DNA of 64,000 nucleotides from Nitrosopumilus sp. (GCA_965214775.1 OZ243974.1:480001-544000); one strand, 5' to 3'. Counted from the stretch's first letter, positions 1,580-37,237 are shown. Program-made: numbers and translations. Notes: a model not told the origin generated them from the sequence alone.

Positions 1580-1811
1580 TGTAGTATATGAAAAGTCGGT
1601 CCGCTAGTCATCTGCATCCCTCTCCATCCATTTTGGGTCCTTCCTCCTGATCGCTTCCGTTGCCTCCTTGCTTCTAAACGCCAGAAGCGGCGTCTCACAG
1701 TTGGCAATGTCAAGCGAAAAGTGAAGCCTTCTCTCGTTGTAATAGTCCACGTACTGTTTCAGGCCGTCATAATGCCATATCTCCTCCTCGATGGTGCGAT
1801 GGAGCCTCTCC
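1580..1811 (-). mobile_element. IS481 left fragment (TIR plus C-terminal end of the transposase)
   Basis: Starts TGTAGTATATGAAAAGTCGGTCCGC; minus strand encodes ERLHRTIEEEIWHYDGLKQYVDYYNERRLHFSLDIANCETP, homologous to the C-terminus of the IS481 transposase at 12821-13840. Confidence 0.85.
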
Positions 1812-1879
1812 GGTTTACCCGTCTCAGGCGGTGAAATCCCCCCTTAAACCGAAAAAATCCATTGTGAGGTGGCTGTACA

Positions 1880-3316
1880 ATGAGTGATACCGTAAAAAGG
1901 TCGTGGGGGCGGCACGAGAAGCTGCTTGAGGATCCCGACGTCAAGAGATGGTGCGACAATATAGCAAGGGGCAGCGTGGCCACCGCAGAGATCCGGCTGC
2001 GCAGGCTCGGCGTGTACTGCGAGAGGACAGGCACCACGCCGAGGGACTTTGCGCAGGCCGGAGTCGACGACGTAAGAAGCGTCGAGGACCTGCTGATGGA
2101 CCACGTGTCGTTTCTCGAGGGCAGGGGGCATGCGCCCTCGTACATCGAGGACATACTCAAGACGCTGCGCTCCTGGCTCTCGTTCAACTATGTGCGGCTG
2201 GTCCGGAAGATAAAGATCAAGAACGCCGACATTCCGGTGACGCTGGAGGACGAGGAGATTCCCACCCGGGAGAGAATCCAGGACGTGCTGGACTCGGCAC
2301 CGGCAAGGGAGCGCGTGTCGATATCGATGATGGCCTTTGCCGGCGTGCGGCCGCAGGTGCTTGGCAGCCACCACGGCGAGGACGGCCTCAGGATGAGGGA
2401 CATCCCGGATCTGCAGGTGGACGGCCAGAACGTATCCATTGCCAGGACGCCTGCAAGGATAACGGTGAGGCCCGCCCTGAGCAAGGCCGGACACCAGTAC
2501 TTTACGTTCCTGCCCGAGGCAGGGTGCAGGTACCTGCAGGGATACCTCATGGAGAGGATCGCAGGAGGCGAGAAGATTGAACCGGACTCGCCCGTGATCA
2601 CGTTCGTCAAGGGATACAGGACAAAGTCGGACCGCGACACGTCCCACCTGAGGACCGTGACCGTCACGGAAGGAATCAGGAACGCCTTTGGCATTATAAT
2701 CAAGGAGCGGCCCTACGTCCTGCGGGCGTACTTTGACACCCAGCTGCTGCTTGCGGAGAGCAATGGAAGGATGACGCACGCGTACCGCCAGTTCTTCATG
2801 GGACACAAGGGCGACATCGAGGCAAAGTATACGACCAACAAGCACAGGCTTGCCGACGAGCTCGTATCGGACATGAGGGGGGCATACGAGCGCAGCCAGG
2901 GGTTCCTCGTGCCAGGCGCGGATGATGAGACCGCATCAAGGGACAGGAAGGATCTGCTGCTTGAGATGTGGAGGGGGCAGGCGCGGCTGTACGGGATAGA
3001 CCCCGTAAAGATAAGGATAGAAAAGCAGAGGGCATCGCAGGGCAAAAAGACCGGGCAGGCAGATACGGCAGATGATCAGATAGGCGCCATCAAGGCTGCC
3101 ATTCAAAGGATAATCAGGGGAGACGGCCGGACGGTGCGGCCGCAGGCAGGCGAGAAAAAGGCATACGAGAGCAGGCTGGTCGACGGTGAGGGGGATCTCG
3201 TAGCATGTATTGAGGACGGGTGGGAGGTCATAAGGGAGCTAAGCAGCGGCAAGATCCTTCTCAGGCGCAGCACCGGGGCGGAGCCGGCGGGGGTTCCCGA
3301 CCATTCGGACCAGTGA
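1880..3316 (+). CDS. Tyrosine recombinase/integrase
   Basis: AFAGVRPQVL (R), LSKAG (K), PYVLRAYF (R), MGHKGDIEAKY (H,Y); N-terminal SAM-like domain. Confidence 0.9.
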   Translation: MSDTVKRSWGRHEKLLEDPDVKRWCDNIARGSVATAEIRLRRLGVYCERTGTTPRDFAQAGVDDVRSVEDLLMDHVSFLEGRGHAPSYIEDILKTLRSWLSFNYVRLVRKIKIKNADIPVTLEDEEIPTRERIQDVLDSAPARERVSISMMAFAGVRPQVLGSHHGEDGLRMRDIPDLQVDGQNVSIARTPARITVRPALSKAGHQYFTFLPEAGCRYLQGYLMERIAGGEKIEPDSPVITFVKGYRTKSDRDTSHLRTVTVTEGIRNAFGIIIKERPYVLRAYFDTQLLLAESNGRMTHAYRQFFMGHKGDIEAKYTTNKHRLADELVSDMRGAYERSQGFLVPGADDETASRDRKDLLLEMWRGQARLYGIDPVKIRIEKQRASQGKKTGQADTADDQIGAIKAAIQRIIRGDGRTVRPQAGEKKAYESRLVDGEGDLVACIEDGWEVIRELSSGKILLRRSTGAEPAGVPDHSDQ

Positions 3317-3610
3317 CTCTATCGCATCCTCCTTTTTCCGGTATGCCTTTTCAGATATTACGGAGAGCAGCGCGTTGATCAGCTCGACGTACGGGGCTAT
3401 GGCGCCGCATACTACGGCGTCAAGGAACTCGTGCCGCAGGGTCTCCAGGGCGCCTGCAAAGTCCGTGGAATAGACGTAGATCCTGCTTCCGATTACCTCG
3501 CCCTCCTTTGCAGAGTCGGCTTTTGGAACCCACAGGACGTCAAGGTCCGCGTTTGTCCCGCTTGCCTTCTTGAGCCTGTCAAGCTCCTCCCTGAGCGATT
3601 CCCTGAGCAT
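3239..3610 (-). CDS. Small zincin-like protein convergent with the integrase
   Basis: KEGEV...IYVY...LETLRHEFLD, an HExxD/H-like motif. Confidence 0.5.
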   Translation of the reverse strand: MLRESLREELDRLKKASGTNADLDVLWVPKADSAKEGEVIGSRIYVYSTDFAGALETLRHEFLDAVVCGAIAPYVELINALLSVISEKAYRKKEDAIESLVRMVGNPRRLRPGAAPEKDLAAA

Positions 3611-4014
3611 GGCCGCCTTGCCTTCCATCCATCTGCATGGGGCTGTTTTCTTAAAAGCAGAGACAGGGTCCGGACGCGAGGGTCTGCCCCTTCAGAAGGC
3701 GCGGCGTGGGGGTGGAGGGGGGCGTGGTGATCAAGACCCCGGCCGGCGGTGCCGCCCACGGGGAAAGCCCCTGCGTCCGGATTTTCAGGATTTGAAAAAG
3801 CATCTCCGGCAACTGACTGCGTCGGATGCCTTGGAAGCCATGGTGACGGTTGAAGATCCTTGATCATCAAAAGGCGCATTCCGGCGCAGATCATGCCGGC
3901 ATGTGTTGGGGAACTCGGCCGCCACCGTCCATATCAGGGACGATCCAAGTGGGACGTCCAAGTACCGGTGGAAGGCACAGACCACGGCGGTTTTTGACGA
4001 ACCGTAAATGTTCG

Positions 4015-4803
4015 TCAGGATCTCCTTCTTCCCCCAACGATTACGCTTGGGATTCCATAGTTCTTCCTGTACTTGTTGACATAGTCTGCGATATCGCCGC
4101 TAAGCGAGTCATTTGATATGTCGTCAAATATTATCGCGCAGATGTTGGGAAACCTTTCTTGGTACTCCTCAAGCTGGGCCCCGAGGTTGCGCAGATCCGA
4201 GCGCTGCTTTGGCACCTTGAGCTCCAGCACGTACCTGCCGTCTACCAGTATGTCGATTCTGTCGTTTCCGATTATGGTTACCTGCCGGTCGATCTTCCTG
4301 CCGGGAAACTTGGCCTTGAGAAAGATCACCAGCTGCGATTCAAGGTGCTCCTCGTTTGATATCTTTTCGGGCTCAAACTCGGCACGTATCAGGTCGATCA
4401 TCGGCCCAAAGTCGCCGCGCCCATGCTCCGGGCCGCCTGCGTCCCTGAAAAAACTCGGGGATACAATGCGTCTCTTTTTTGCAAACTCGCTGAGATGGGC
4501 GTACCTTATCTCCCCGCCGGGGACGTGCCTCCAGATAAAGTCAAGATAGTCCTTTCTGGATGGCGGGATTTTACGCCTCCTTCCGTTGTCATCAGTATCG
4601 ACCTCCGGCTCGGGTTTTTTATTCAGGTATTTTTTCAAAAACTCCTCAAGATCAGGTATCTCAAAGTGTTCCAGGAGATCGTCGACCCTGCCACGGATTT
4701 CATCGAGTTCGTGCTGCCTCTGCCTCCTTTGATCCTGAACCTGGTCGTATTTCTTCTTGGCATCCGATAGGATCTTCTTCCAGCCCACGCGCAGCTCAGG
4801 CAT
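4015..4803 (-). CDS. PD-(D/E)xK nuclease-domain protein
   Basis: C-terminal EEHLESQL...RIDILVDG...LELKV...QLEEY pattern. Confidence 0.65.
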   Translation of the reverse strand: MPELRVGWKKILSDAKKKYDQVQDQRRQRQHELDEIRGRVDDLLEHFEIPDLEEFLKKYLNKKPEPEVDTDDNGRRRKIPPSRKDYLDFIWRHVPGGEIRYAHLSEFAKKRRIVSPSFFRDAGGPEHGRGDFGPMIDLIRAEFEPEKISNEEHLESQLVIFLKAKFPGRKIDRQVTIIGNDRIDILVDGRYVLELKVPKQRSDLRNLGAQLEEYQERFPNICAIIFDDISNDSLSGDIADYVNKYRKNYGIPSVIVGGRRRS

Positions 4804-5104
4804 GGCAGATATTTAATTTTTGACTGGCATGTGGGACAAGAGTCTGCCCTCCGGGAGATGCGGCACAGAATGCGTGATCATAATAACCTCGGCATGTAGT
4901 GCAGTTGTGGCCAGACTTGACATGGCTGACCGCTTTTTTACAGCCGGCTCTGGTGTTTTTCAGAGTCAGAATATACGTCAGGGCCTGATTGTATCGTACG
5001 CGGCGCCTTTTGCCTCCACACATGCCACGTAATGCTGTCTGTTTTGCATGCATGGCCGACTTGCTATCGGAATATTTTGATCCCGGAGACTGCGTACAGG
5101 GTGA

Positions 5105-5320
5105 CTAGTCGCCGTACTTGGCATAGTGTTCCTTCCACTCTGCAACCCTTTTCTTGATGGCCTGTTTTACGGGCTCAACTGCACCGGGCTCCAGCTCGGA
5201 GAGCTTGAAACCGCCATGACCATGAAGCACGGCAAGCTCTTCTGCGGTGACATATTCCGACATGTGCCCCCTTTCGTATGTCGGATTCTTGAACAGTTCA
5301 GATAAACTTGTATTTGCCAT
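5105..5320 (-). CDS. Small protein overlapping the upstream gene by 23 bp (candidate immunity/antitoxin)
   Basis: 71-aa ORF; weak similarity to 23126-23311 and 23491-23694. Confidence 0.55.
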   Translation of the reverse strand: MANTSLSELFKNPTYERGHMSEYVTAEELAVLHGHGGFKLSELEPGAVEPVKQAIKKRVAEWKEHYAKYGD

Positions 5321-5936
5321 TGCTGTATACCACCACTATCTCTTTTTGGTTGTACTTGTTCTTAAACATTAGCAGTTTTTTCACGTCTGCGCTTATTATC
5401 ATGCCCACGTCATTGTCTACCCTGTTCTTATCCACGTCTGTCCACGTTCCAATCGACGGCGTATATCCCTCGCTTACAGTTCTCTCAAACTCACGTTCAG
5501 ACGTCTCATCAAACGGCCTCGCGTGATGTGTGCGTCCTATGATCCCTACGGGCTTGCCGCCTATGCCGTGTGCGTCATAGAACCTCCTACGATGCGCCGG
5601 ATTAAAGACGTCAAATACGGAGTTGGTTGCATAGTCATACGTTCCACTCCCTCCCTCTGCCATGAGTTTATTCATCGCAGGCAGGCCGTTGGAGAATTCA
5701 GATGCCTTTATCCTTCCGCCGTGCCTGCTCAGGGGGTCGGGCTTTATCGGTTCGCCCTTTTTGTAATTTATCACAGACCGCCTGCCTCCACCCGCTACTG
5801 GAACCTCCCTCCTTATCCATCTTGTGCCCGGACTCGTCAAGCCTTCCTGCACGTGGCGGGAGGAACCTCCTGTGCCGGCAACCATAAATTCGTGAAAGCC
5901 GCCTGCTGCCGGTAGGCGTATTTGTTCATAAAACAC
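5298..5936 (-). CDS. Hypothetical protein, C-terminus homologous to 22714-23148
   Basis: IGTWTD...NDVGMIIS...LMFKNKYNQKEIVV motif shared with 22714-23148. Confidence 0.6.
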   Translation of the reverse strand: MFYEQIRLPAAGGFHEFMVAGTGGSSRHVQEGLTSPGTRWIRREVPVAGGGRRSVINYKKGEPIKPDPLSRHGGRIKASEFSNGLPAMNKLMAEGGSGTYDYATNSVFDVFNPAHRRRFYDAHGIGGKPVGIIGRTHHARPFDETSEREFERTVSEGYTPSIGTWTDVDKNRVDNDVGMIISADVKKLLMFKNKYNQKEIVVVYSNGKYKFI

Positions 5937-6139
5937 TTTACAAACTTTTGCTCGCCAGGATGCCAGTTACCCGGCGGCAAGTGAACCGTCTCCGAGGATC
6001 TTCTCGCAGACCTCACATATGAGGCCGCTTGGCCAGCAATGAGGCGGGACAAGTCACGACTTTGCAGGTGCGTACCTCATTGACCTCGCACGAATCAGAT
6101 CTCTAAATCCTTAATACTGCCACAGTCCTGTTCCAGCGC

Positions 6140-6373
6140 ATGAGATTTCTGGTGGACGAAAACCTCTCAAAGAACAAAAAATCCCTGGTTGATCACAGGA
6201 ACCTGAAAAACGTCAAGGATGAAATCGACGGAGGGGTTTCTGACGAAAGGATCATCGAATGCGCAAAAGGCCACGGTCGCGGAATCTACACCCGGGACAA
6301 GGGGTGCGCCCTGCTTGGACTGATTGCAGGGGTTATCGTATGGTACAGGGATCAAGAAACAAGGAGGGCGTAA
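6140..6373 (+). CDS. DUF5615/PIN-like protein, short
   Basis: MRFLVDENL...SDERII...IYTRDK pattern. Confidence 0.6.
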   Translation: MRFLVDENLSKNKKSLVDHRNLKNVKDEIDGGVSDERIIECAKGHGRGIYTRDKGCALLGLIAGVIVWYRDQETRRA

Positions 6374-6598
6374 AGCTAAATGCCCAGAAGCTGCGATTTA
6401 CAAAAAAAGAAAGGGAAGATGGACCATAGCTGCGCACTGCGGCTCATGTGGTATCCTTGTCCTGTGCACGCATCCATGCGTCTTGGGATGTTTGCAGCAG
6501 ACCGTCGGCTTCATGCAGGCCTGCAGCGTTCAGTCCTGCAGTATTCTGCTTGTCTGAAAAAACGGGGGAGCACTGTCCAGTCCTTCGGGGAACCTGCT

Positions 6599-6718
6599 GT
6601 ATCCCGGAAACCGCGGCCTCCTGCGGGAGCCGTGCAGCCTGATCTCCCGTATCATCTCGATTGCCAGCTCCTGCAGCAATCCCCTTACCTCTGACATGAC
6701 GTAAAAAACCACGCTGCT
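6599..6718. repeat. ~120-bp dispersed repeat, copy 1 (copy 2 at 42904-43024); encodes a short minus-strand peptide
   Basis: Long identical core accgcggcctcctgcgggagccgtgcagcctgatctcccgtatcatctcgattgc. Confidence 0.85.
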
Positions 6719-6961
6719 TTAAAGCCCAAAAAGCCGGACGGGAATATACACCACGGAGGATCCGGCCTTGCTACCGGCCGGCCATGGGGTCGCAGCTGTA
6801 TGGGAGCCCCTGCCCGGCTGACGGGGCGGGAAGTCCGGTGCATGCCCTGACGCGCCGCCCCGGCCAGAGAACAGGGCAAGCCCCTCCGAATCGGCCCAAA
6901 AAACCTTTTATTGCCTGTACCGTACTTTACGGTACCATGAACAAAAGGAAGAGCCAAGGAC

Positions 6962-7153
6962 ATGATTGAGCGCTGTCCCTCGTGCGAGACGGGCTCGATC
7001 AGCACCCCTGTCATCCTTGCCAGGGGATCCAAGAGACGCCGAATCCGGCTCCCGTGCCGGGCATGCCGACACTGCAAGATCATAATCATCGACGACGTAA
7101 AAAAGATGGGCGGCTGGGCCATCTGGATCGGAGATGAAAAATCGGATCTTTAA
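6962..7153 (+). CDS. Small zinc-ribbon protein
   Basis: CPSC...CRHC. Confidence 0.5.
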   Translation: MIERCPSCETGSISTPVILARGSKRRRIRLPCRACRHCKIIIIDDVKKMGGWAIWIGDEKSDL

Positions 7154-7170
7154 ATCATTTCTTTTTTCTT

Positions 7171-7851
7171 GTGTTCGTGAATCCGCTGCTGGTTATTACC
7201 CTGATCCACCTCGCATACGCCGGCGGCATAGATGCATTTCTTGAGGAATACGACAGACAGACGTGGTATCTAGGCGAGGATTTGGTACCCGGCGACTATT
7301 TTGTGTATGACGTGTGCGACGCGGTGCATTTCAGGGACGGCTCGTGCTATGCAATACGCCTTGACTTTTACGCGGAGCTCCTGTCTCCTGCGGGCGATAC
7401 ATGGGTGGTGCAGGCCGAGATAACGGACGGCGGGCACAATACTGCACACCACATATTCCTCATTGACTCGGACACGATGAGGATCAGGACGGATCATGTG
7501 GGATCTGCACATGCGCGCTCCGTGGAGAACACCATATTCTATCTCTCACAGTTTGCCCCGCCATACGGCCAGAAGAGTCTCGGGGTTGGAAGCGTATGGG
7601 GCGAGGTTCCCTCATCGCTGGGGGCAGCCGAGCTCCATGTCGCGTCCCATGATACGGCTCACGTGGGTGATGATATACTGGACGTGTCGATCCTGGAATA
7701 CTGGGTGTTCAGGTCCAGCGTATTTGCGGTATCAGAGTCACTGGGGTTCCCCGTGTCCGCATCCGTGTATGACCCGCGCGCAACGCTTGACGATCCATCC
7801 CTGGCATTCGCGTTCACGCTGTCCGAGTTCTCCTCGGGCAGAGGGCAGTGA
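7171..7851 (+). CDS. Exported hypothetical protein
   Basis: 226-aa ORF with N-terminal hydrophobic signal peptide (AYA). Confidence 0.7.
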   Translation: MFVNPLLVITLIHLAYAGGIDAFLEEYDRQTWYLGEDLVPGDYFVYDVCDAVHFRDGSCYAIRLDFYAELLSPAGDTWVVQAEITDGGHNTAHHIFLIDSDTMRIRTDHVGSAHARSVENTIFYLSQFAPPYGQKSLGVGSVWGEVPSSLGAAELHVASHDTAHVGDDILDVSILEYWVFRSSVFAVSESLGFPVSASVYDPRATLDDPSLAFAFTLSEFSSGRGQ

Positions 7852-7909
7852 GGATTTTCCTAAAACGCCAAGGGCCGAATCCGGACGGCCGCAATACAAT
7901 TCCAAAAGC

Positions 7910-8031
7910 GTCCCGGACGTCGGCTACTGTCGCCCACCTGCGGGAACATTTTGTCCCGGACGTCGGCTACTGTCGCCCACCTGCGGGAACATTTTGTCCC
8001 GGACGTCGGCTACTGTCGCCCACCTGCGGGA
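7910..8031. repeat. Tandem repeat, 43-bp unit x 2.8
   Basis: gtcccggacgtcggctactgtcgcccacctgcgggaacatttt starting at 7910, 7953 and 7996. Confidence 0.95.
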
Positions 8032-8143
8032 CAAGATCATCCCTTCTGCACCGGATCTGACGCGATCCTGGTACGGGCATGCCCGGAATCCGGAACGGGA
8101 GGATTCCTTGCGGCCTCTAAATAGAACCCGCATTATGTATGCA

Positions 8144-8485
8144 ATGAACCCACTGGTGATAGTCGGCGTGGTGACCGTATCGCTGCTTGCCGCAGGCATG
8201 ATTGTGTCGTTTTCGGGGGATCAGCTGAGGTACTCGCAGACGGCCGAAAGGATTGCAGAGATGCAGTCAGAGCGGACGCGCGAGGAGCTGGATGCCACGT
8301 ACGGGGACGGCCGGATCACACTGGAGAATCCGGGCTCCGTGCCGGTGCACATCGTGGAGATTCGCATACTGGATGATGACGGCCATATGATACACCGAGA
8401 AAAGGCCGACAGCACGATTGCGCCTGCACGGGGCCTGGAGGTGCCGCTTGATGCGGGACTGCTAAACCCGGAGGATGCGCAATGA
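8144..8485 (+). CDS. Archaeal pilin/archaellin-like small protein
   Basis: N-terminal hydrophobic helix followed by ITLENPGSVPVHIVEIRI beta-sandwich motif. Confidence 0.55.
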   Translation: MNPLVIVGVVTVSLLAAGMIVSFSGDQLRYSQTAERIAEMQSERTREELDATYGDGRITLENPGSVPVHIVEIRILDDDGHMIHREKADSTIAPARGLEVPLDAGLLNPEDAQ

Positions 8486-10677
8486 GCTACGTCCTGTGCA
8501 TGACCGCAGTTCTGGCGTCGGTCTGCTGCCTTGCGGCAACAGCAACAGCAGTAGCGGCATACGGGGAGACCATAGAGATAGTGACATCCCGGGGAAACGT
8601 CTTTGTTGTAGACATGGGCCCGTCCGGTGGGCCGGATACGGCCGACGATGACGGGGGCAGCAACTCCATGATAGGCGGGCTCGGGATAAACTCGCGGCTC
8701 GTACACCACGGCGTGGCCGGCACCATGATCCACGGCCCGGGTACGACGGGCACCGAGGAGTCGCTGAGGCCGTACACCACGGTTCCCTCCGATACGCGGT
8801 TCGTCGCGATACTTGAGGATGACGGGGCCGACTCGTATCCCGTCCCCGACGCGTATTCAAGGTACGAGTTTGTGGGTGGCGCACTAGAGCGCAGAACCGC
8901 AGAGCCTGCAAACATACTCGGATACGCAGACGCCCGCACCGTTCATGGCAGCGTCGACATCGTGGTAGACGATGACGGCATAACGCTGTCAGGGGAGGGA
9001 CGGATCATACTGAGACTGCACGATACGACCGAGCAGATCCACATGCGGGGCCAGGCAGGCGGCGATACGGTGATGAGGGTTGTTCATTCCCCGTACGATC
9101 TGATGGCAATCCCGCATACGGGCAAGGGGTTCTTGGTAAATAACATGACATCAGATCCCGGAACAAGCGGGCTCGAGGTGCTGGTGGGATCCGTGGACGA
9201 CTCGGTAAAGTCGGCCAATTTCGAGTTCGTGCAGGAGGCCTCCCTGACCGTATACCATGGCAAGTGCTGCAAGGGAAGATACGTGCAGACGGGCTCCCAC
9301 GAGATAAGCACGCCTGCACACCTGATCATACAGGCCCACCCGAGCGGCTATCACGCAGTCACCGGCGACACTACCGATCCGTGGACCATGGATACGGACT
9401 CGATAAAGAGGCCCGGGGCCAAGACGCTCAGCACGCACTACAACAGGGTGACGGGCTTTGAGCACACCATACATGACACGCTCCCGGTCAGGCAGGCCGG
9501 GCCCTCCCTTGTCGGCGCCTTTGATGCCGAGTTTGGCGGCCTGCGCGACGCGTACCTGGTAGTCGACAGCAGCGGCCAAGCGCCCTCCAGGATATGGGCG
9601 CATACGATATCGGATGCCGACTTTGTCAGCATAGGGGGCGTCCCGGACGGCACCGCATACAGGATTACCAGCGGCGCGGATACCGTGTCTGCCGGCATAT
9701 CAGACGGGACCATAACGGTCGGGTCGTTCCCGACGCCCGCCCGGAGCGAGGAGCTTGCACTGCACCTGTATCCGGACGCCCTGGTGCATGTGGGAACGGG
9801 CGATGCGGGAATGATCGTCCTGGATCACGCAAACTCGGAATCCCTTGCAGTCGCAGGAGGAGGTGCCGACGAGGACACCGTGTATACGGTTCACGCATAC
9901 GTCAAGATTCCGGTGACCGGCGCCGTAACGATAAACGGCACCTCGATGGACGGTCTCGCGCTGCCGTATCTTGACGGCAGCTACTCGGGCGGCGATTCCA
10001 TGATGATCCCGGTGATCCCGACGTACAGGGGCATATCCATGTCGATAAACGGGATGGACGCATACCTTGGAATCGCGGACGTGCTGGGCGGGACCGGCCT
10101 GAGGATCACCGATCCCGTATCGAGTACGATCTCGGTATCACAGGACAGGTTTGTCGACAGCATCCAGTCAACTGCGGGAATAGTCGCGTACGCGGTGGCC
10201 CCGACGGACGGCAGGATGAAAGCGCACGTGAGGGCCGAGATCTCCGGCGTCTCGGAGATTACCAATACTAGGACATACTTTGAGAACACCCCGCCACCTC
10301 CCCCGCCGCCGCGGCCAAGGGATCCGCTGACGCTGTGGATAGAGGTGTACGTGAACGGCCAGCTGCGCGAGATCGACGGCCGCACCCAGACGCAGATCTT
10401 CTTCAGCGACACGCCCGGCGAGTCCCACCAGTCCGGCGCCAGCGGGAGCCACTCCACGTTCCATACGGCGCGATTCTCGTATCCTGACATCCTTGTATTT
10501 GACTCCATGTCCGTTCCCGTGGAGGCCGCCGACTTTGTGGAGTTTTACTTTTACAACCAGATAGAGGCGCACGGAAGCGTGCCGCCGCTGCCCTCAGGGT
10601 TTCACGAGCATGCGCAGCACGGCCGCGCCTCGGCCACCGCGACCATGCGGTATGCCAGCATAAACACCGGCATGTGA
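8482..10677 (+). CDS. Large secreted/surface protein
   Basis: Signal peptide, IEIVTSRGNVF motif, poly-Pro linker; ATGA overlap with the previous gene. Confidence 0.75.
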   Translation: MSYVLCMTAVLASVCCLAATATAVAAYGETIEIVTSRGNVFVVDMGPSGGPDTADDDGGSNSMIGGLGINSRLVHHGVAGTMIHGPGTTGTEESLRPYTTVPSDTRFVAILEDDGADSYPVPDAYSRYEFVGGALERRTAEPANILGYADARTVHGSVDIVVDDDGITLSGEGRIILRLHDTTEQIHMRGQAGGDTVMRVVHSPYDLMAIPHTGKGFLVNNMTSDPGTSGLEVLVGSVDDSVKSANFEFVQEASLTVYHGKCCKGRYVQTGSHEISTPAHLIIQAHPSGYHAVTGDTTDPWTMDTDSIKRPGAKTLSTHYNRVTGFEHTIHDTLPVRQAGPSLVGAFDAEFGGLRDAYLVVDSSGQAPSRIWAHTISDADFVSIGGVPDGTAYRITSGADTVSAGISDGTITVGSFPTPARSEELALHLYPDALVHVGTGDAGMIVLDHANSESLAVAGGGADEDTVYTVHAYVKIPVTGAVTINGTSMDGLALPYLDGSYSGGDSMMIPVIPTYRGISMSINGMDAYLGIADVLGGTGLRITDPVSSTISVSQDRFVDSIQSTAGIVAYAVAPTDGRMKAHVRAEISGVSEITNTRTYFENTPPPPPPPRPRDPLTLWIEVYVNGQLREIDGRTQTQIFFSDTPGESHQSGASGSHSTFHTARFSYPDILVFDSMSVPVEAADFVEFYFYNQIEAHGSVPPLPSGFHEHAQHGRASATATMRYASINTGM

Positions 10678-26950: not shown

Positions 26951-27017
26951 GCCGATACCCTGCGCCTTGCCGTCTGGTTGAGTCCAACCTGAACTTCCAG
27001 AGCACGACCTGTTACCT

Positions 27018-27101: not shown

Positions 27102-27138
27102 GAAACTTGTAATCAAACAAGACACTTGGACCAAGCAA

Positions 27139-28596: not shown

Positions 28597-28616
28597 GATA
28601 TTCAGAATGCATCGCT

Positions 28617-28700
28617 ATTAGACCTTATGCGTATTTTCCAAAAATGACGTAAAAGCTGCCTGATTTTTTTGATTTGAACCAATTACGCATAAGGTCTAAT
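28617..28700. repeat. MITE family C, 84 bp, perfect 17-bp TIR
   Basis: attagaccttatgcgta ... tacgcataaggtctaat; inverted copy at 42280-42362. Confidence 0.8.
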
Positions 28701-28770
28701 GTGTGTTCTTGTCCAGTTTCCGTTTTTGCTCGATCTTTTTGATACGTTTCACTTAGCTGATCAGGAACGG

Positions 28771-29178: not shown

Positions 29179-29785
29179 TTTGACGTAACTCTTAATTTAG
29201 ATTGGTGTCTGTGTTTTGTTGTTTTGTAAGAGTGGCCGAGTAATTTTTTGATTAGCCCCATGTTGCTCCCATTGATTGTAATGGCACGTTCTGTACGCAA
29301 CGGAAAAAAGAATCCCTTTATGGGCCGTATTTCAGAAATTTTTTCTTTGAAGGTTTTGGGATCTATTCTAAATCGTAGCGTTGCCGTTTTTTTGCCTGCC
29401 AACAAAACAGCAAATAGTTTTTTTCGCTCTGTAGGCTCATCGAGATAGAATCCATACCATCCGTGCAACGGCTTTCCAACGCACCTGAATTTGTCAGTAA
29501 TGTGCAAATCTAGTTGTTTTAGCAGAGATTGGACTTCTGGAGATGCTTGATCAAATCTTGTATTCCAGTCTTGAACTTCCTTGTTTTCCTGCTTGGAGAC
29601 GGTTTTGGATAAAGTATCACAGGGGTGAATGTGTGTGCCATTTTTTGCTTCAAATGTATTGAATTCAAGTAATCGGTTTTCTATTTTCTTCATTTCAGAT
29701 ATGGAATCAGACACTTCCTCTATTTCTGGCGTTTTTTTATCAACCACAATAACCAGACCAAGCTCTCCATCTAAGACTTGTTCTA
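29175..29785 (-). pseudogene. 3' part of a gene (DUF5655-like C-terminus) truncated by IS630
   Basis: Frame runs into the IS630 left TIR at 29786. Confidence 0.55.
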
Positions 29786-30891
29786 TAGCAACGAGCATAA
29801 GTCTTTGAGCCAAAACAAGGTAATTCGAAAAGTATAATGATCACGTAACTGGCGCAGTATGTATGGCAAAAGAAACAGATATTCTGTCAGAGGCCATGCG
29901 CAAAGAAAAGGATGTCAAAGTCTACAAGAAGATCATGGTGCTGATGTTTGTGCTAGAAGACGACATGGGCGTACCCGAGACCGCAAGAAGGGTCCGGTGC
30001 AGTGAGAATTCCGTGCGCAACTGGCTGGCGAGGTTTTCGGAGGACGGCATAGACGGTCTCCGGGATCTTCCCCGTTCCGGATGCAGGCCAAAGGTGGGCA
30101 GAGAAAGTATTGTCGCCATAATGGATCTGTCCACTGCATGCAAAAGTACCGATGTCATGACGGTACGCGATGACATAAGGGATGCCACCGGGACAGAATA
30201 CAGTATAGAGCATGTCCGGAGAATGATGCGCCAGCACGGCCTGTCGCGCCGCAAGGTGCAAAACATACATGTTAACCATGCCACCCCAAGCTCGGTATAC
30301 TCATGGCAGTGGTATCTTGAAAACGTGCGGATTCCGTGCCTGAAAAACGACGGTTTTACGCTGGTGTCATCTGATGAGGCGTTCTTCGTGCAGGGCGCAT
30401 ATGACAGATACGTGTGGGGTCCGGTCGGTACCAGAAGCGTGGCATCGTATTCGGGGGATCACACAAAGGTGGCCGTGTTTGGAAGCATCGCAGAAGACGG
30501 CAGGAAGCTGTTCAGGACGCTTGCGGGATCGTTTACGTCGGTGCAGTTCATAGAATGTCTGGAGGCGCTGTGCACCAGGTTTGGCAGGGTTGCCGTCTTT
30601 TGCGACAGGCGGGGCGCGCGCAGGGCTGCTTCCGTCGCAGAATGTCCGGCGGGCCATCCCGACGTCGGGCTGATAATGATCCCTAGGGGATCGCCGTACC
30701 TCAATGTCGTGGAAGAATGCTGGAACCTGGGCAAGCACGCAGTTTTCATGGGGATAGTGTACAGAAGGATCAGCGAGCTGCGGCACACCATATCTGAGTA
30801 TTACAGGACGGTGTCGTTTGCCCGCCTTTGCATGTACAGGTACATTTACAGATCGCCGGCCAAGGCCCTCAATTACTTGTGACCGTTGCTA
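29786..30891 (+). mobile_element. IS630-family insertion sequence
   Basis: Imperfect TIRs tagcaacgagcataagt / acttgtgaccgttgcta, flanked by TA. Confidence 0.75.
29863..30882 (+). CDS. IS630-family transposase (possibly degenerate)
   Basis: HTH with GIDGLRDLPRSG; SSDEA, FCDR, SPYLNVVEECW. Confidence 0.85.
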   Translation: MAKETDILSEAMRKEKDVKVYKKIMVLMFVLEDDMGVPETARRVRCSENSVRNWLARFSEDGIDGLRDLPRSGCRPKVGRESIVAIMDLSTACKSTDVMTVRDDIRDATGTEYSIEHVRRMMRQHGLSRRKVQNIHVNHATPSSVYSWQWYLENVRIPCLKNDGFTLVSSDEAFFVQGAYDRYVWGPVGTRSVASYSGDHTKVAVFGSIAEDGRKLFRTLAGSFTSVQFIECLEALCTRFGRVAVFCDRRGARRAASVAECPAGHPDVGLIMIPRGSPYLNVVEECWNLGKHAVFMGIVYRRISELRHTISEYYRTVSFARLCMYRYIYRSPAKALNYL

Positions 30892-31067
30892 TATATGTAG
30901 AGGTTTCACCGCTAGGATGCATATGAGGTCTAAAGTAGTTCAATAGTTGAAAGTGTGCCACAAGAACCCATCTAGCGACCCGTTCCGTACAGAGTTGTCT
31001 ATCACGAACGTTTCAGATCCCCGGAGAAAATCCGTATATGGTCACCAATTTTACACAGCCCTACTGC

Positions 31068-32269
31068 GGGGTTGTCCAAAAAATTTCCTCAAAATGACCG
31101 CTAAGCTTATAGATCATGGGCGTAATACACCGAAAACAATTTTGATCAGCCGATCCTGGCTATTTCAATGAGTAACAACAGAAAGAACACAGAATACTAC
31201 CGACTCTACGAGCAAAAGCGCAGGCAGGAGAGCCCCCGCAAGAAGAGGGCAAGGAAGAACCTGGGAAAGATCGTGCGCAGGGTGGCCAAGAAGATGGCGG
31301 ACAAAACGGGAATCGATGCCAAACTTGCATGGTCTGCCATACGCATTGCGATCCTCAGGATCGAGAACCACCTGTCCTACAGGATCATGGCCACGCATCT
31401 GGAGACAAATCCGGACGATCTCAGGAGGTGCGGCCTGGACCACACACTCTCCAAGTCCACCCTGCACAACAGGGTGAAGATGCTCTGGGAAATGGGCAAG
31501 GACTTTATGGATGAGGTCGTGCTGGCCATGTCAGACGGCGAGCGCATAGCGGACCTGCACGGCGACTCGACGGGGTTTGGCCTCCGCAAGTACAAGAGCT
31601 GGCATCATGCCAAGTACGGGGAGATGACAGGACACGACTTTGCAAAGCTGCACATAGTAGGCGCAGTAGGAGGCAGGATACTGTCATTTGAGGCCACGCC
31701 TGGCACATCGGCCGACTCGCCGGAGTTTGCCCGCATGTTTTCCCGCATTCCAAAGGGAGGATACGACATAGTGGCGCTGGATTCGGCATACGACTCGTAC
31801 AAAAACTGCGAGCTGATTGCAAAAAGCGGCCGCGGACCTGCCATAAAGCCGGCAAAGGGAAACGAAAAGCCTTGGCGGGTTCAGTGCCCGGGCCAAGATG
31901 CTGCAGTGGCTGCGTGACAGGCCAGACGAGTTCTGGCGCGCCTATCACATGAGGAGCCAGGTAGAGGCCCTGTTCTCGGCAATGAAGGAAAGGACTGGAT
32001 CCGTCCTGCGCTCAAAGCTGGACGGAACCATTACAGTCGAGCTGTTCGCTCGCGTGTTGTGCTACAACCTTACGGTATAATTTTTATCATAATTCCGTAC
32101 TGTTGTTGGACTGCAGCAGCACTACCGTAAGGTATGGCCCGCATGGATATTTACGTTGCCTTTTGCGCATGTCCGGCCGAAAATGTCCCGTTCTGCATCT
32201 GAATTCACATACATACGGGGGCAGACTGGCAGATTATGGCAGCCTCTTGGAAATTTTTTGGACAACCCC
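31068..32269 (+). mobile_element. IS5-family insertion sequence, 21-bp perfect TIR, 9-bp TSD
   Basis: ggggttgtccaaaaaatttcc / ggaaattttttggacaacccc; ccctactgc at 31059-31067 and 32270-32278. Confidence 0.9.
31168..32080 (+). pseudogene. IS5-family transposase with a frameshift near 31870
   Basis: DSTG, KLH and LDSAYDS in the first frame; YHMRSQVEALFSAMK in the second. Confidence 0.8.
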
Positions 32270-32313
32270 CCCTACTGCGACATGTTCATAAACACAAATG
32301 ACCGATAGATGCC

Positions 32314-35300
32314 ATGCCGTTACCTTTTGAAGTAAAACAAGAACATCTACAAAATCTAGGACCGGAAAGATCGGTCGATCTAATCAGATATATGGTGTGG
32401 TCAGATGCAACTGCGTCCGGAATTGGGAAAAATCTGATCAACATTCCCACTGCAATCACAGTAAAGGACGGGGGGATAGATGGGGAGGTAAACGGAGCAG
32501 ATAAGGACGGAAAATACGGCATAATAAAAAAAGGAATCACAAGGTATCAAATAAAATCTGGAAAGTTCAGCTGTAAAGAGTCTGACATAAAATCAATTCT
32601 ATGCAAAAAAGGAACAAATGAGCTAAACAATAGGATGAAATCCTGCTTGGACAAAGACGGAACCCTTGTGATAGTCTTCACGGGTTGGGACGATTCAGAT
32701 GTCACCGATGACTATGTTTTAAACAAATTCAGAGAAATACTGCAGTCAATTTCGGACAAATACAAAACCTCCAAAATCGAGATCTGGCGTCAGAACACCA
32801 TCATTGGGTTTTTGGAAAACTTTCCTTCACTGAGACTTTATGTTCTAGGTATAAGAGATCGCTCATTTTGCTTGCATGAGGAATGGGCAAACTTTTCAGA
32901 TATGAAACCTACCCTGCATCTGGGAGAGCCCCAAGAAAGGTTCATCCGGGATTTCAGAGAAGACCTGCGTGCAGACAACAGACCAACCCACATACGAACA
33001 CTCGGAGAACCCGGAATTGGAAAAACAAAGCTTGTCCTAGAGGCCACAAACACAGATGATCTAAAACCAATCACAATTTACCTAGAAGATCCTGAAAAGA
33101 TTGATGGAATGGATTTCCTAAATCGTATCTCGGGCATAGATAGTGAGTCAAATATTATTTTGGTTGTAGATGAATGTGATTTTAAATCCCAGGCGAGGAT
33201 TTGGAACCGGTTGGAGCATAAGAGCCCAAAAATCAAACTAGTTACGATTTTCAATGAATTCGATGATTCTTCTGGCACCACCCTCAGGAGAGATGTTCCA
33301 GAATTGGATGATGAAGCGATTGGTGAAATACTCCATTATGAATACAAGGTAGATCGATACGAACTAGAAAAGTGGATCGATATGTGCAAACCGTCCCCAC
33401 GAGCAGCTCATATCATAGGCAGGAATTTGCAAGAAAATCCGGAGGACATTCTAAAGTCACCAGACACGGTTCCGGTATGGGATAGATATGTCGCAGACAG
33501 GTTAACACTTGGCAGTGTAGACTTTGAAGAAAGACGTATTATTTTGTGTTGGATAAGCCTTTTTAAGAAATTTGGATCCGAGTCCCCATTTGAAACTGAA
33601 GCAAAGAAAATCGCATCGCTTGTTGAAAAAAACCACGACATCCCGATTGGGACGTTTATGAAAACAGTACGAAAGCTAAAAGACATGAAGATTCTTCAGG
33701 GCCACTCGACCCTATACATAACACCTAAAATACTACATGTGTATTTTTGGACGCAATGGTGGAAAAATTATGGGCGAAGCATAGCTCCAAGTTTTGATGA
33801 ATTAGTCATCTCAGAGGAAGGTGCACGAGATCCTCTGAGTTTGTTCAAGTGGTATCGCGAGATGTTCAAATATGCAAAACAATCTCCTGAGGCAAGCAAG
33901 GTTGTAACAGAGTTATTGCGTGGAAAATCCTTTGATAACGACGCAGTTTTGAAAGCCCAACCTGTAGCAAGTTTTTTTTTGACCCTTAGCAAAACCGATC
34001 CCTCGTCAGCACTCAGCCATCTAGAACAAATCATGAGGAGCAAATCAAGGGAGGATCTGCTAAATGTTACAACCGGCAGGCGTGAAATTGTCTGGTCTTT
34101 GGAGTACATGTCTATGTTCAAAGGGCATTTTGCTAGGGCGGCAGGCCTCCTACTTTTGCTGGCAGGTGCAGAAAACGAAACATGCTCGAACAATGCAACA
34201 GGTGTTTTTACATCGCTTTTTTCACCTGCACCCGGCAGAGTAGCTGCGACCGAGGTTGCACCTGTAGACAGGATTCCAATACTAAAGTCTGCGATGGATT
34301 CGGATTCCAAATACAGAAGGGTAGTAGGGATAAAAGCTTGTGATGCGGCGCTGCAAACGGGAAATTTTTCACGGTTTGTTTCTAATTATTACGATATCGG
34401 TGAACAACCCAATCTCTGGGAGCCAAAATCAAGATCTGAGACAATAGAGTACTATCAGGAAATACTGCATATGCTAATGGGGCACTTGGAAAAACATGGG
34501 GAGGAAATCAATGAGGTTGTAAAAGTGGTACTGGATCACGTAAGAGGCATGATCCGCATTCCAGAGCTCTCCAGTAGAATGATAAAAATCATTCAAAAAT
34601 TGCACGAGACATCCCATGTGGATGACGAGAAGCTGGTAGACACAATAATCAAAATCATAGACTTTGACAAAGAAAAGCTAGATCCTGCTGTTGTCAAAAA
34701 GCTAGAAAGGTTACAAGATAGCATAACCGGAACCGACTTTCATTCGATGATGCGGCGGTATGTGGGAATGCACGCATCTGTGGACTGGGGATCCAAAAAA
34801 GGCCCGGATGATGTCCGCAAGAAGGAAATTGACGAGCTGACCACCAAGTCACTGGATCCTAAAAACATAGAGCCAGAACTTGAATGGCTGGTGACAGACA
34901 AGGCAAAATACGGTCTTGTGTTTGGCTACGAGCTGGCAAAAAAGGATCACTCATACTCATTACTGGATCTGATACTGGATGCCCTAAGGAATTCCAAAGG
35001 CCGGGGAAGTGGATTTTTTGCAGGAGGATACTTTCGGCATATTTTTGAAAACAATGTCAAAAGATGGGAGGATGAATTGGATGCGATATACGACGACCCT
35101 GTATTGTGTATACTCTTGCCTGAAATCACATGGAGATCGGGATTGACTGACAGATCTGCAAAAAGACTGGCAAACGGCATACGTGAGAAAAGATTTGACC
35201 ATGCCACCCTTGGACGTTTCCGACATTACATTCTAGGCAAACTTTCAGAGGAGCGGCTCACAGAATGGATTGAAATCCTGCTGGGTGAAAAGAAAGCCGT

Positions 35301-36060
35301 CTTTATTGCGATTGAAATTTTCTATCACTACTTTGTTCACAGGACACAGAAGGCACTGCCAAGAGATCTCACACTGAATCTGCTGTTGCATGAGGACATA
35401 ATTCACAATGATCCAAAGACGGCACACAGTATGGTGGATGAATACTACTGGAAAGAGACAGGTATGGCGTTTGTAAAACAGTATCCGGAGGACGGCATCA
35501 AAATAGTCGAAAAGATCATCGAGGGTTTTGGAGCCGATAATTTCTTTGGACGACACGGCTCTGAAATGAGCGAGGTTCTTAGTGAAGTTGCCAGAATCAT
35601 GCCCAAGGAAGTTTGGAAGACAGTTTCGCAGTATCTGGGGCCACCGATAGACTCAAGAGCGTTTAGCATACAGCAGTGGGTGCGCGGGAACTGGTTTGAT
35701 TCCAAGCGCGGAATGCTAGATGCAATCCCAATGTCCGAAATTTATAGGTGGATAGACGAGGACAAAAAAACAAGGGCCAGTCACATCGCTGGTTTTTTGC
35801 CGCCATCATTTGAGAAAGTCAGGGATTTTTTGGCAAGGTATGGTGATCAGGAGGAGGTGCGAAGACACATGGTCATAAACTTTGGCAACGAGGTATGGAT
35901 GGGTTCTGCAGTAGCACACTATGAAAAAAAGAAAAAACAGATTGAAAAGCTGGTAGAAAAGGAAACAGATATGAACGTGCTATTATGGTTGAAGGATTAC
36001 ATTGAATCGCTGGATTCCGCCATTCAGCGATCCAAAGAGCATGAGGAAAGAGATTTCTAA
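32314..36060 (+). CDS. Avs-like antiviral STAND NTPase with N-terminal PD-(D/E)xK/Mrr-like nuclease
   Basis: DGGIDG...YQIKSG; GEPGIGKT Walker A; LVVDEC Walker B; long helical C-terminus. Confidence 0.7.
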   Translation: MPLPFEVKQEHLQNLGPERSVDLIRYMVWSDATASGIGKNLINIPTAITVKDGGIDGEVNGADKDGKYGIIKKGITRYQIKSGKFSCKESDIKSILCKKGTNELNNRMKSCLDKDGTLVIVFTGWDDSDVTDDYVLNKFREILQSISDKYKTSKIEIWRQNTIIGFLENFPSLRLYVLGIRDRSFCLHEEWANFSDMKPTLHLGEPQERFIRDFREDLRADNRPTHIRTLGEPGIGKTKLVLEATNTDDLKPITIYLEDPEKIDGMDFLNRISGIDSESNIILVVDECDFKSQARIWNRLEHKSPKIKLVTIFNEFDDSSGTTLRRDVPELDDEAIGEILHYEYKVDRYELEKWIDMCKPSPRAAHIIGRNLQENPEDILKSPDTVPVWDRYVADRLTLGSVDFEERRIILCWISLFKKFGSESPFETEAKKIASLVEKNHDIPIGTFMKTVRKLKDMKILQGHSTLYITPKILHVYFWTQWWKNYGRSIAPSFDELVISEEGARDPLSLFKWYREMFKYAKQSPEASKVVTELLRGKSFDNDAVLKAQPVASFFLTLSKTDPSSALSHLEQIMRSKSREDLLNVTTGRREIVWSLEYMSMFKGHFARAAGLLLLLAGAENETCSNNATGVFTSLFSPAPGRVAATEVAPVDRIPILKSAMDSDSKYRRVVGIKACDAALQTGNFSRFVSNYYDIGEQPNLWEPKSRSETIEYYQEILHMLMGHLEKHGEEINEVVKVVLDHVRGMIRIPELSSRMIKIIQKLHETSHVDDEKLVDTIIKIIDFDKEKLDPAVVKKLERLQDSITGTDFHSMMRRYVGMHASVDWGSKKGPDDVRKKEIDELTTKSLDPKNIEPELEWLVTDKAKYGLVFGYELAKKDHSYSLLDLILDALRNSKGRGSGFFAGGYFRHIFENNVKRWEDELDAIYDDPVLCILLPEITWRSGLTDRSAKRLANGIREKRFDHATLGRFRHYILGKLSEERLTEWIEILLGEKKAVFIAIEIFYHYFVHRTQKALPRDLTLNLLLHEDIIHNDPKTAHSMVDEYYWKETGMAFVKQYPEDGIKIVEKIIEGFGADNFFGRHGSEMSEVLSEVARIMPKEVWKTVSQYLGPPIDSRAFSIQQWVRGNWFDSKRGMLDAIPMSEIYRWIDEDKKTRASHIAGFLPPSFEKVRDFLARYGDQEEVRRHMVINFGNEVWMGSAVAHYEKKKKQIEKLVEKETDMNVLLWLKDYIESLDSAIQRSKEHEERDF

Positions 36061-36189
36061 TCCTTGTTTATAGCATGTAATGAGAATCTACAAGGTGATC
36101 TGGAAAAATTTCGTTATTTACTAAATGTTTTACATCATAGCAAACCTAAGAAATAGACCATAAAGGAATTAAACGTTCGTTTTAAACCG

Positions 36190-36304
36190 GTCTTCCCAAA
36201 CGTATCCGACCCATGATGGTGCAGACGGCTACACGCGGATTTGCAGGCAGCTTGGCTTGAGCTGCTTCGAATGCGGAACCGTCTTGTGGGGAACTGAAAA
36301 GACT
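36190..36304. repeat. MITE-like repeat family A, copy 2
   Basis: gtcttcccaaa...gcggatttgcaggcagct...aagact. Confidence 0.6.
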
Positions 36305-36403
36305 GCAATCCAAAACAATTTTAAGCCGACGCATCCGATGATACACTGAACATCTTGATGAGACCCGAATTTGGCGGGGTTTCGTCGTTTGAGAGCCGTG
36401 GAA

Positions 36404-37237
36404 CCTCTCCAGCTTGCCGTTGGTCTGCGGGTGATATGGCCTGGTGTTTATCAGGATGATGTCCCGTGTAAGCAGCTCCTCCTCAAAGAGCGTGGGCTGC
36501 CACGTCCCCATGCCGGTGCCGCCTTTGGAGGCCGCCTTTTTTCTGCCGTTCTGTCCTACAAAGCACGAGCCATTGTCAGACAGTATGGATGCAGGCGTGC
36601 CAAACCTCTCGATCGCCAGCCTGAGTGTCATTACGGCGTTCTCAGAGGTGGCATGCTCAAATAGTGCGGCCCCCGTAATGCACCTTGAGGCATCGTCAAG
36701 ATACGTGACTAGGTTGAGTCCCTTTAGGCGCGGATCCTTCATTTCATGCCAGTCCACATGCCACATCGCGTTGGAGTATTTGCGCTCAAAGCGGACGTAT
36801 CCCCTCTTTTTTGATTTTGCCGCAGACGGAATCACCAGGCCGTTCTTCTTCATTATGCGGTATACTGCACGGTAGCTTATATTGTGATTGTGCCTCAGCC
36901 TGCCTGCGGTGCGCAGTACGCCTGTCGGTTCGCCCTCGTGCGTCCCGGTCACCAGACGTATCTGGGCGGCTGTGACCGGGACATGCGGCCTGCCCATTTT
37001 CACGCGCGTCGTACCTGTTGCCTGGAACCGGGCCCACAGCCTCCTTACGTGCCTTGCCGTGATGTTCAGATCCTTTGCTATCTTGGAGGACGCGACGCCT
37101 TTCTTGCACTGTCTTACTAGGTACTGCCGTGACTCTTCTGTCAGTATTTTTTTCATGGTTTTTCGTGATCGGTACAGCCTAAAATAGTCCGCTATTGTCC
37201 TCCTGATCCTAGGCGGACCGACTTTTCGTACAATAGA
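36404..37237 (-). mobile_element. IS481 right fragment (5' part of transposase, ATG at 37156, plus TIR)
   Basis: Transposase homology stops at GKLERFH; end gcggaccgacttttcgtacaataga complements the end at 1580. Confidence 0.85.

Follow-up and report, generated by a model that had tools for sequence, protein, structure and literature searches.

The 64,000-nucleotide stretch analysed here (the window) is positions 480001-544000 of a closed 2.83-Mb contig of Nitrosopumilus sp. (GCA_965214775.1 OZ243974.1). It raises the question of how a 34.6-kb element came to lie inside an insertion sequence (IS) of the IS481 type, dividing the transposase gene into two separated parts. We consider it very probable that the element integrated into an IS481 copy by means of its own tyrosine recombinase, and that it represents a small IS481-targeting sublineage of a family of elements directed to transfer RNA (tRNA) genes.

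An IS481 copy split within its transposase gene

To find out how the IS had been broken, we compared its two pieces with the intact copies elsewhere in the genome. The pieces, the left and right attachment-site repeats (attL and attR) at which they end, and the open reading frame (ORF) that crosses the right junction are as follows, with terminal inverted repeats abbreviated as TIR.

1580..1811, minus strand: IS 3' part, subfamily A; transposase end from the LER codons on, plus TIR; 95.7-98.7% identical to copies A, B and C; tblastn match to residues 243-317
1800..1811: attL repeat TGGAGCCTCTCC; perfect core at 1805-1811; base 1804 is G, as in the IS
36399..36410: attR repeat TGGAACCTCTCC; core at 36404-36410; base 36403 is A, as in the element
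36411..37238, minus strand: IS 5' part; transposase residues 1-251 including the core; inner TIR at 37213-37227; 99.6% identical to copy A
36182..37156, minus strand: fused ORF of 324 residues; N-terminal part of the transposase continuing into the right end of the element

As an earlier note on this DNA had proposed, the pieces have the same orientation and the order expected of one IS. Both map onto intact copies. They share the inner TIR GAAAAGTCGGTCCGC, at 1590-1604 and, as the reverse complement, at 37213-37227, which confirms a second claim of that note. The left terminus begins with TGT at 1580; the passages on the IS481 family in one source (PMC10045372) give TIRs starting with TGT and target-site duplications (TSDs) of 4-15 bp.

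The halves are separated by 34,587 bp, bounded by direct repeats of 12 bp that have one mismatch and include a perfect 7-bp core, CCTCTCC, the heptamer that had been noticed at both junctions. With A or G allowed at position 5, the 12-mer was found twice in the window, each time at a junction, and nine times in the 2.83-Mb genome; eight of these matches, including the two in the window, lie in IS481-type sequence and one is a chance match in a host gene. BLAST against the genome revealed full-length copies close to 1060 bp in length (1176826-1177885, for instance, measures 1060 bp) in which the site is undivided, and the two halves mapped onto these copies overlap by exactly the 12 bp. Joining 1580-1811 to 36411-37237 reproduced the predicted IS of 1059 bp with a stop-free ORF of 317 residues. 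Since homology to the intact copies extends to base 37238, the rebuilt IS measures 1060 bp, the same as its closest relatives; the 1065-bp IS that had been taken for its intact relative proved to be a member of another IS481 subfamily, nested in the element at 12806-13870. The rebuilt transposase is identical to that of copy A at 315 of 317 residues, and its NGKLER motif occupies residues 246-251.

On the coding strand the core reads G-GAG-AGG, that is, the last base of the Leu codon followed by the Glu and Arg codons of NGK-LER. The 5' part of the target transposase matches the Pfam family rve at E 4e-12, and the nested intact copy does so at 1e-12; about 60 rve-type copies are present in the genome. 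Because the base before the core is G at 1804 and A at 36403, and because the first base past the core also differs between the junctions (GGTTTACC versus AGCTTGCC), the exchange appears to have been confined to the seven identical bases. The core is retained on both sides, and as a result the fused ORF still codes for transposase residues 1-251, including the Glu of the motif, before it runs into element sequence.

This anatomy suggests the following course of events. A circular form of the 34.6-kb element would recombine with one IS481 copy through the recombinase encoded at 1880-3316. Strand exchange inside the core would split the IS into a 3' piece on the attL side and a 5' piece on the attR side, leaving the core and five neighbouring bases at both junctions. 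In this sublineage the element-side arm beside the core (GCCGTGGAAC) reads as IS481, and a conserved motif of a multicopy transposase could for that reason serve as the attachment site. That the integrase catalysed the event, and at which points the strands were exchanged, we infer from the junction sequences. The use of an IS481 transposase gene as the chromosomal attachment site (attB), with exchange within CCTCTCC, had been put forward in the earlier note and is supported by the split IS, by the intact targets, and by recurrence in two genomes as described below.

Direct repeats also flank the insertions of a cut-and-paste transposon with a target duplication of 7-12 bp, and the two IS481 inverted repeats, both intact and correctly oriented, could bound a unit moved by a transposase acting in trans; intact 317-residue transposase genes do exist elsewhere in the genome. 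However, the single mismatch between the 12-mers is more readily explained by two parental sites than by a duplication, no other transposase type is present at the ends, and no Cas1 or DDE gene was found beyond those of the nested ISs. As for the IS-bounded unit, which the earlier note had entertained, there is no TSD outside the IS ends and BLAST detected no second copy of the unit. We regard both variants as highly implausible.

A divergent tyrosine recombinase and IS481-like ends

If the element integrated by site-specific recombination, its recombinase and its ends should be recognizable. The relevant features are listed here.

1880..3316, plus strand: integrase of 478 residues, a divergent tyrosine recombinase; ATG at a distance of 68 bp from the left junction
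1812..1841: left end, in which the 10-nt arm GGTTTACCCG precedes an inverted-repeat arm of 20 nt at 1822-1841; conserved in the paralogous elements b and c
36190..36398: conserved right-end module, with an inverted-repeat arm of 19 nt (36376-36394) and an IS481-copying arm that ends in GCCGTGGAA

The earlier note had placed the start of a tyrosine integrase 68 bp inside the left junction. The ATG is indeed at 1880, and the identity of the protein was borne out by profile and fold, not by Pfam. The integrase matched no Pfam family at E ≤ 10, PF00589 was detected in none of 30 homologues at E ≤ 1, and searches of NCBIfam, PHROGs and PDB, by sequence and by profile, gave no match. By hhalign, an alignment of 30 integrase sequences matched an alignment of 25 XerA-like sequences bearing PF00589 with a probability of 95.4% (E 1.7e-8, 300 columns), and matched the PF00589-positive XerA-like protein encoded in the window itself, taken alone, with a probability of 90.8%. 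The AlphaFold2 model (mean predicted local distance difference test score, 76.3) had 40 Foldseek matches in PDB at E ≤ 1e-3, and all those listed were tyrosine recombinases, with archaeal XerA 4a8e at the top (6.7e-7) and IntI, Cre, XerH and integrases of phages and transposons among the others. From the profile-profile comparison and the predicted fold we conclude that the 478-residue protein is a divergent tyrosine recombinase of the non-split kind.

Six residues (R157, K202, Y279, R282, H309 and Y317) were invariant in the alignment of all 30 homologues, with Y279 in place of the first His of the catalytic R-K-H-R-H/W-Y set. The Arg, Lys and H-x-x-R positions align with the XerA-like family, the alignment being gapped around the nucleophile; the putative catalytic roles given to the invariant residues are our own reading of it. 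In comparison with recombinases of the XerA, Cre and IntI types (PDB 4a8e, 5hxy, 2a3v, 1crx), the two-domain fold and the catalytic residues are common to both, whereas the sequence is only 11-19% identical, the first His of the usual H-x-x-R is replaced by Tyr (Y279), and an additional conserved C-terminal region extends for about 130 residues past the nucleophile. There are at least 1418 homologues, mostly unnamed, a few of which are labelled as site-specific integrases by NCBI; the nearest ones from outside, P0003 and P0005, are 88% and 94% identical. The XerA-like recombinase of the window (54505-55446, minus strand) is one of only two PF00589 matches genome-wide, despite the many integrase-bearing elements present; most integrases of this genome escape the Pfam model.

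The integrase ORF is unsplit and, at 478 residues, full-length relative to a family consensus of about 485. An SSV-type ('suicidal') element was also considered, and was ruled out as the integrase gene is not split by integration.

When the right end is joined to the left end, a long imperfect dyad of about 2 x 30 nt is formed in all three elements for which both ends are known, and its centre in the window element maps to the core bases TCTCC. Folding with RNA parameters gave the three dyads z-scores of −3.5, −6.7 and −5.5; when DNA parameters were used, the values were −1.7, −6.1 and −3.8. Such a dyad would suit paired recombinase half-sites flanking an overlap region. The four mismatches between the arms at 36376-36394 and 1822-1841 would all be G-T wobble pairs if one strand folded, and the equivalent inverted-repeat arms of paralogue c form a near-perfect DNA repeat. 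The wobble pattern in the window may be due to chance (about 1 in 16) or may hint at a role for a folded single strand.

The arm next to the core varies among right ends. Those with the arm CCGTGGA abut IS481 in six of seven cases, compared with one of eight for the other right ends examined. One right end (L140) retains CCGTGGA at a non-IS site, which indicates that the arm belongs to the element and not to the target; the homologous arm of tRNA-type elements is likewise kept across different targets. A motif census of all rve-type copies in the genome identified GCCGTGGAACC as the native sequence of an IS481 subfamily with nine copies, and therefore the arm matches IS481 for 11-16 bases beyond the core. 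We infer that the IS481-like arm is an adaptation.

Recurrence of the site and competing explanations

Whether other elements of this kind occupy the same site was determined by a BLAST search of the element against the genome, followed by reading of the junctions. The terminal sequence is conserved at five left ends and six right ends, which have the following genome positions.

481811 / 516399, left and right ends of the window element: abut both halves of IS481 subfamily A
About 654600 / 583967, left end c and right end c': intact tRNA-Ala(GGC); both ends, separated by about 70.6 kb, carry the 12-bp repeat CCTTCCGGTCCA
2473247 / 2489627, left end d and right end d': unrelated site; cargo of a serpin and a large subtilase
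About 1025927, left end b: IS481 3' fragment of another subfamily, broken at the position seen in the window; reads GTGGAAGCGCTCC then GGTCCACCC
115404, left end h: IS481 3' fragment, same position; integrase gene deleted; reads GGTGGAACCCGCTCC then GGAC
About 797457, right end f': IS481 5' fragment, same position; reads CCGTGGAACGTTCC then AGCTTGCC
1774259, right end F: IS481 5' fragment from which about 228 bp adjoining the junction are missing
About 2043864, right end e': other, non-IS flank

The IS481 fragments at b, h, f' and F belong to subfamilies other than that of the window, and the four element integrases of this genome are 78-85% identical. The earlier note had proposed a test of whether integrase homologues adjoin IS481 fragments broken at the same codon. 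This held for b, h and f' and for three junctions in a second genome, G250, and F adjoins a 5' fragment shortened by about 228 bp; most homologues lie at tRNA genes.

G250 came to light when the left-end leader was scanned in a collection with one genome per species, in which the only other matching contig was its own; the IS481-type sublineage has so far been seen in two species-level genomes only. Nine right ends of G250 were examined. Three are at the same IS481 site (L132, L133 and L135), one with a loss of 1 nt and another with an extra GGTT, a fourth lies in IS481 about 40 nt away (L139), and five are elsewhere; two further matches (L136 and L142) fall outside the nine. At L135 (contig C2, about 988257) the right end is followed by a short IS481 remnant, and GGTT, the first bases of the element left end, lies between core and IS. 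This junction is odd, and plain integration does not explain the extra bases.

Paralogue b is present in both genomes and is 99.3-99.6% identical between them over 6.45 kb, as compared with 74% for a 4.7-kb chromosomal control. The identity stops at the junction, beyond which element b is flanked by IS481 in our genome and by a short repeat in G250. Judged from these identity levels, the comparison shows a recent horizontal movement of paralogue b; and because the identity ends at the junction, the element boundary is independently fixed. A metagenome scan with a 30-nt right-end motif gave no matches. In public contig-level runs compared with window 1-20000 (4 of 6 holding the region, from two studies), the joints were those of paralogous loci, such as the h junction. 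Neither a circle junction nor an emptied site was seen in these contigs, which carry no weight in either direction.

Integrating elements favour tRNA genes, which are conserved and tolerate insertion. Of the 301 genomes sampled from the class, 86 encode homologues of the integrase, a tally that includes three unpublished genomes (G132, G231 and G283). The sequence next to the more distant homologues was classified, with a tRNA gene counted if it lay on the same strand in the 400 bp before the integrase gene.

29 genome loci (one from G132): tRNA gene at 11, none at 17, no upstream sequence at 1, IS481 fragment at 0
80 metagenome loci: tRNA gene at 49, none at 19, no upstream sequence at 12, IS481 fragment at 0

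A tRNA gene thus stands beside 60 of the 96 loci with upstream sequence. Judging by these neighbourhoods, tRNA genes are the usual target of the family, and IS481 would be a specialty of the sublineage in the two genomes. Many of the metagenome contigs (L047-L126) end 150-350 bp upstream of the integrase, at or just past the tRNA gene; assembly seems to be interrupted at the attachment sites, which would be expected of elements whose presence varies within populations.

An association with tRNA genes as overwhelming as this, with IS481 at none of the 109 loci, suits the explanation that a tRNA-directed enzyme with low sequence demands simply integrated at a secondary site, IS481 being abundant and offering a short match, so that no specialisation is involved. 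Close paralogues do use tRNA-Ala, an unrelated site and a short repeat, and thaumarchaeal attachment sites as short as 8 bp are given in the portion of the catalogue PMC6563490 considered here. Against this, the insertion point is identical to the nucleotide in at least four IS481 subfamilies and across two genomes, the element arm matches IS481 over 11-16 bases past the core, the arm type tracks the IS481 flank, and the lone chance 12-mer in a host gene is unoccupied. We therefore judge secondary-site integration to be unlikely, and favour a sublineage that targets IS481.

Several observations weigh against such a targeted integration. No TSD surrounds the rebuilt IS, as the earlier note had remarked; copy A has one of 15 bp and the nested IS481 copy one of 16 bp. 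The left half is nearest to copy B (2 mismatches in 224, versus 6 in 232 to copy A) and the right half to copy A (2 in 826, versus 30 in 831 to copy B), and the halves may come from different IS copies that were united by later recombination. Integrases that are 78-85% identical occur at tRNA-Ala, at the unrelated site and, in G250, at the short repeat, which points to loose specificity. Several ends are solo or deleted, so that the events can neither all be paired nor all be counted as independent. A joint resembling the attachment site of a circular form (attP) was found neither by regular expression in this genome nor among viral contigs (0 matches), and IS481 is absent from the 109 more distant loci. 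With regard to the target motif, sequence searches of the IS481 transposase against solved retroviral integrase cores gave weak matches (E 0.02-0.1), and the Glu of NGKLER is one that we take to be the third catalytic residue; these alignments pair WHVDW, SDNG and NGKLER with integrase motifs, for example NGKLER with QGVVER.

The comparison of the fused IS with intact copies came out both ways, the joined ORF agreeing with copy A at 315 of 317 residues and the halves being nearest to different copies. Mosaicism is general among the IS copies; A and D, for instance, differ at 7 of 223 positions on the left and at 7 of 827 on the right. Either one IS copy that was already mosaic was entered, or two occupied copies recombined later, and both readings need integration at this site. 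Halves matching different copies, and homologues at tRNA genes or unrelated sites, had been named in the earlier note as findings that would speak against its proposal. These were encountered in part, as the halves are nearest to different copies, most homologues are at tRNA genes, one close paralogue is at tRNA-Ala and another is at an unrelated site. The central claim nevertheless stands.

The lack of a TSD and the mixed affinity of the halves would also be in keeping with a homologous or IS-mediated rearrangement, in which diverged IS481 copies recombined within their longest identical stretch and the element merely lay between them. Two hybrid IS481 copies give further substance to this idea. 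They are located at genome 23860-24960 and 29330-30388, in inverted orientation and about 4.4 kb apart, with no element between. One has an X-type 5' part and an A-type 3' part, and the other an A-type 5' part and a different 3' part, and both breakpoints fall inside one identical block of 23 nt that holds the attachment core. The pair have the appearance of two IS copies between which an inversion took place, and their breakpoints would be as compatible with an integrase acting on IS pairs as with homologous exchange. However, an exchange between ISs cannot create non-IS sequence that starts exactly past the core at both junctions. This sequence consists of the conserved ends of an integrase-bearing family, the same ends are found at tRNA-Ala and other sites, and the boundary was confirmed by the comparison of the two genomes. 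A rearrangement of this kind is very unlikely to account for the window.

Integration by the element's own recombinase can be carried one step further, to a proposal that we offer tentatively, as possible but somewhat short of likely. The lineage would have retargeted a tRNA-type integrase system to the most conserved DNA stretch of IS481-family transposase genes, through the evolution or capture of an arm that reproduces this stretch. Any IS481 copy, whatever its host, would then offer a neutral place to land, and the IS entered would be disabled. Acting on pairs of IS481 copies, the enzyme could also yield hybrid ISs and chromosomal inversions, such as the hybrids at genome 23.9-30.4 kb.

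An IS481-A copy at genome 2249620-2250751 carries an insertion of 35 nt followed by a 36-nt duplication of upstream IS sequence, starting 5 nt from the attachment core. This may be a scar of faulty recombination at the site.

Known systems, cargo and surroundings

In the portion considered here of the catalogue of Krupovic et al. 2019 (PMC6563490), 74 thaumarchaeal integrated elements are assigned to tRNA genes (39), intergenic sites (15) and the 3'-distal parts of genes for cellular proteins (14). No target gene named there is a transposase, and the attachment strings described above are absent from the four supplementary files of the catalogue that were searched as text. The cryptic elements with non-split (pNOB8-like) integrases in the same portion resemble the window element in their intact integrase at one end, short direct repeats, mixed and mostly unknown cargo, nested ISs, and relatives at the 3' ends of tRNA genes. 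In contrast to them, the window element has as its target a multicopy IS transposase gene, broken in mid-gene, and its integrase is unrecognised by PF00589. IS targets are unmentioned in the part considered of a review of archaeal tyrosine recombinases, and a full-text literature search, whose coverage excludes most subscription journals, gave no report of a tyrosine-integrase element with an IS transposase gene as attB.

The system that comes closest is phiRv1, which occupies the REP13E12 repeats of Mycobacterium tuberculosis (PMC9317374) and, like the present element, has a repeated, multicopy attachment site; phiRv1 differs in being bacterial, in using a serine recombinase, and in having a target that is not the catalytic motif of a transposase. 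An IS481 motif as attachment site offers many copies per genome, carries no cost to the host, and is present in every place that IS481 has reached. Two selfish elements are thereby brought into direct conflict, the DNA of one apparently serving as the landing pad of the other. The dusA-specific integrases, as Farrugia et al. reportedly described them in 2015, have their attachment site in a conserved stretch of a protein-coding gene and not in a tRNA gene; that target is said to be a single-copy cellular gene, usually restored by the element, whereas the target in the window is a selfish multicopy gene that is left truncated.

For Thermococcales, Cossu et al. (2017, PMC5495485) proposed that a plasmid-encoded integrase drives chromosomal inversions. 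In the part of that paper considered here, the integrase of an archaeal element is proposed to recombine repeated chromosomal sequences, which may bear on the hybrid IS481 copies; unlike the enzyme of the window, that integrase is of the SSV type. If the enzyme described here also recombines IS481 copies, it could drive genome rearrangement in an IS-rich archaeon. We know of no link between the Thermococcales integrase and IS481 or a transposase motif. An integrase family that is found in 86 of 301 genomes and is nevertheless unseen by the Pfam model also implies that integrase-based surveys of archaea may have missed such elements, and paralogues 78-85% identical with tRNA, IS481 and other targets provide a natural series for the study of target change in tyrosine integrases.

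Apart from the integrase and the ends, the element contains the following.

1812..36398, plus strand: element body, 34,587 bp; mosaic GC content of 0.36-0.62
6885..16998, plus strand: backbone of large ORFs with no family match, among them 8482-10677, 10674-14607 (IS excluded) and 14647-16995; 88-89% identical to the paralogous element at genome 641444-650541
12806..13870, minus strand: nested IS481 of another subfamily, 1065 bp; later insertion with a 16-bp TSD, interrupting a backbone ORF
18458..19609, minus strand: rve-type IS, 1152 bp; later insertion; multicopy, copies 99% identical
29783..30893, plus strand: DDE_3 (IS630-like) IS; later insertion
31068..32270, plus strand: DDE_Tnp_1 IS; later insertion with an 8-bp TSD
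32314..36060, plus strand: cargo protein of 1248 residues, resembling the defence protein PD-Lambda-4_A (E 3e-20)

Four IS insertions have thus been acquired by the element since. Besides these, the genes with a family match are those for the PD-Lambda-4_A-like protein, a zeta/AAA_33-like kinase and an HNH-repeat protein; the remaining backbone and cargo genes are mostly unmatched in Pfam, NCBIfam, PHROGs and PADLOC, and none was found in the ESM Atlas. A provirus was considered as well. No structural PHROG match was found in the element and no relative of its integrase in viral contigs, which speaks against a provirus, although this is a weak negative as the backbone proteins have no family match.

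The cargo of element d (genome 2473000-2490000) includes a serpin (Pfam E 2e-106) and a subtilase of 1828 residues with HYR and lectin-like domains; sections of this module are also found elsewhere, at several sites in the genome as well as in G250. In the window element, repeats of 75-85 nt at 27027-27102 and 28616-28700 each have dozens of copies genome-wide that are 83-92% identical, and look like miniature inverted-repeat transposable elements. A similar short repeat is the left flank of element b in G250.

The surroundings of the split IS contain further traces of mobile DNA. Just to its left (18-1410, minus strand) are two overlapping ORFs, one of which, with 291 residues, weakly matches the AbiEii nucleotidyltransferase toxin (Pfam E 2e-4, just under the cut-off; PADLOC E 0.0024); the two are possibly an AbiE-like toxin-antitoxin pair. 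Directly to its right (37290-38756, plus strand) are a HicB-like/HicA pair (HicA E 1e-8) and a fragmented ORF for an integrase N-terminal (SAM-like) domain. The segment 37238-38750 is duplicated at genome 1710322-1713034 with 91-96% identity, the homology beginning exactly at the IS end, and the IS481 copy entered by the element therefore borders on a further mobile region, now decayed. Farther right, at 42672-42745 on the plus strand, is a tRNA-Pro(CGG) gene, the sole match to Rfam or by ARAGORN in the window, at which the decayed element on its left may have been attached.

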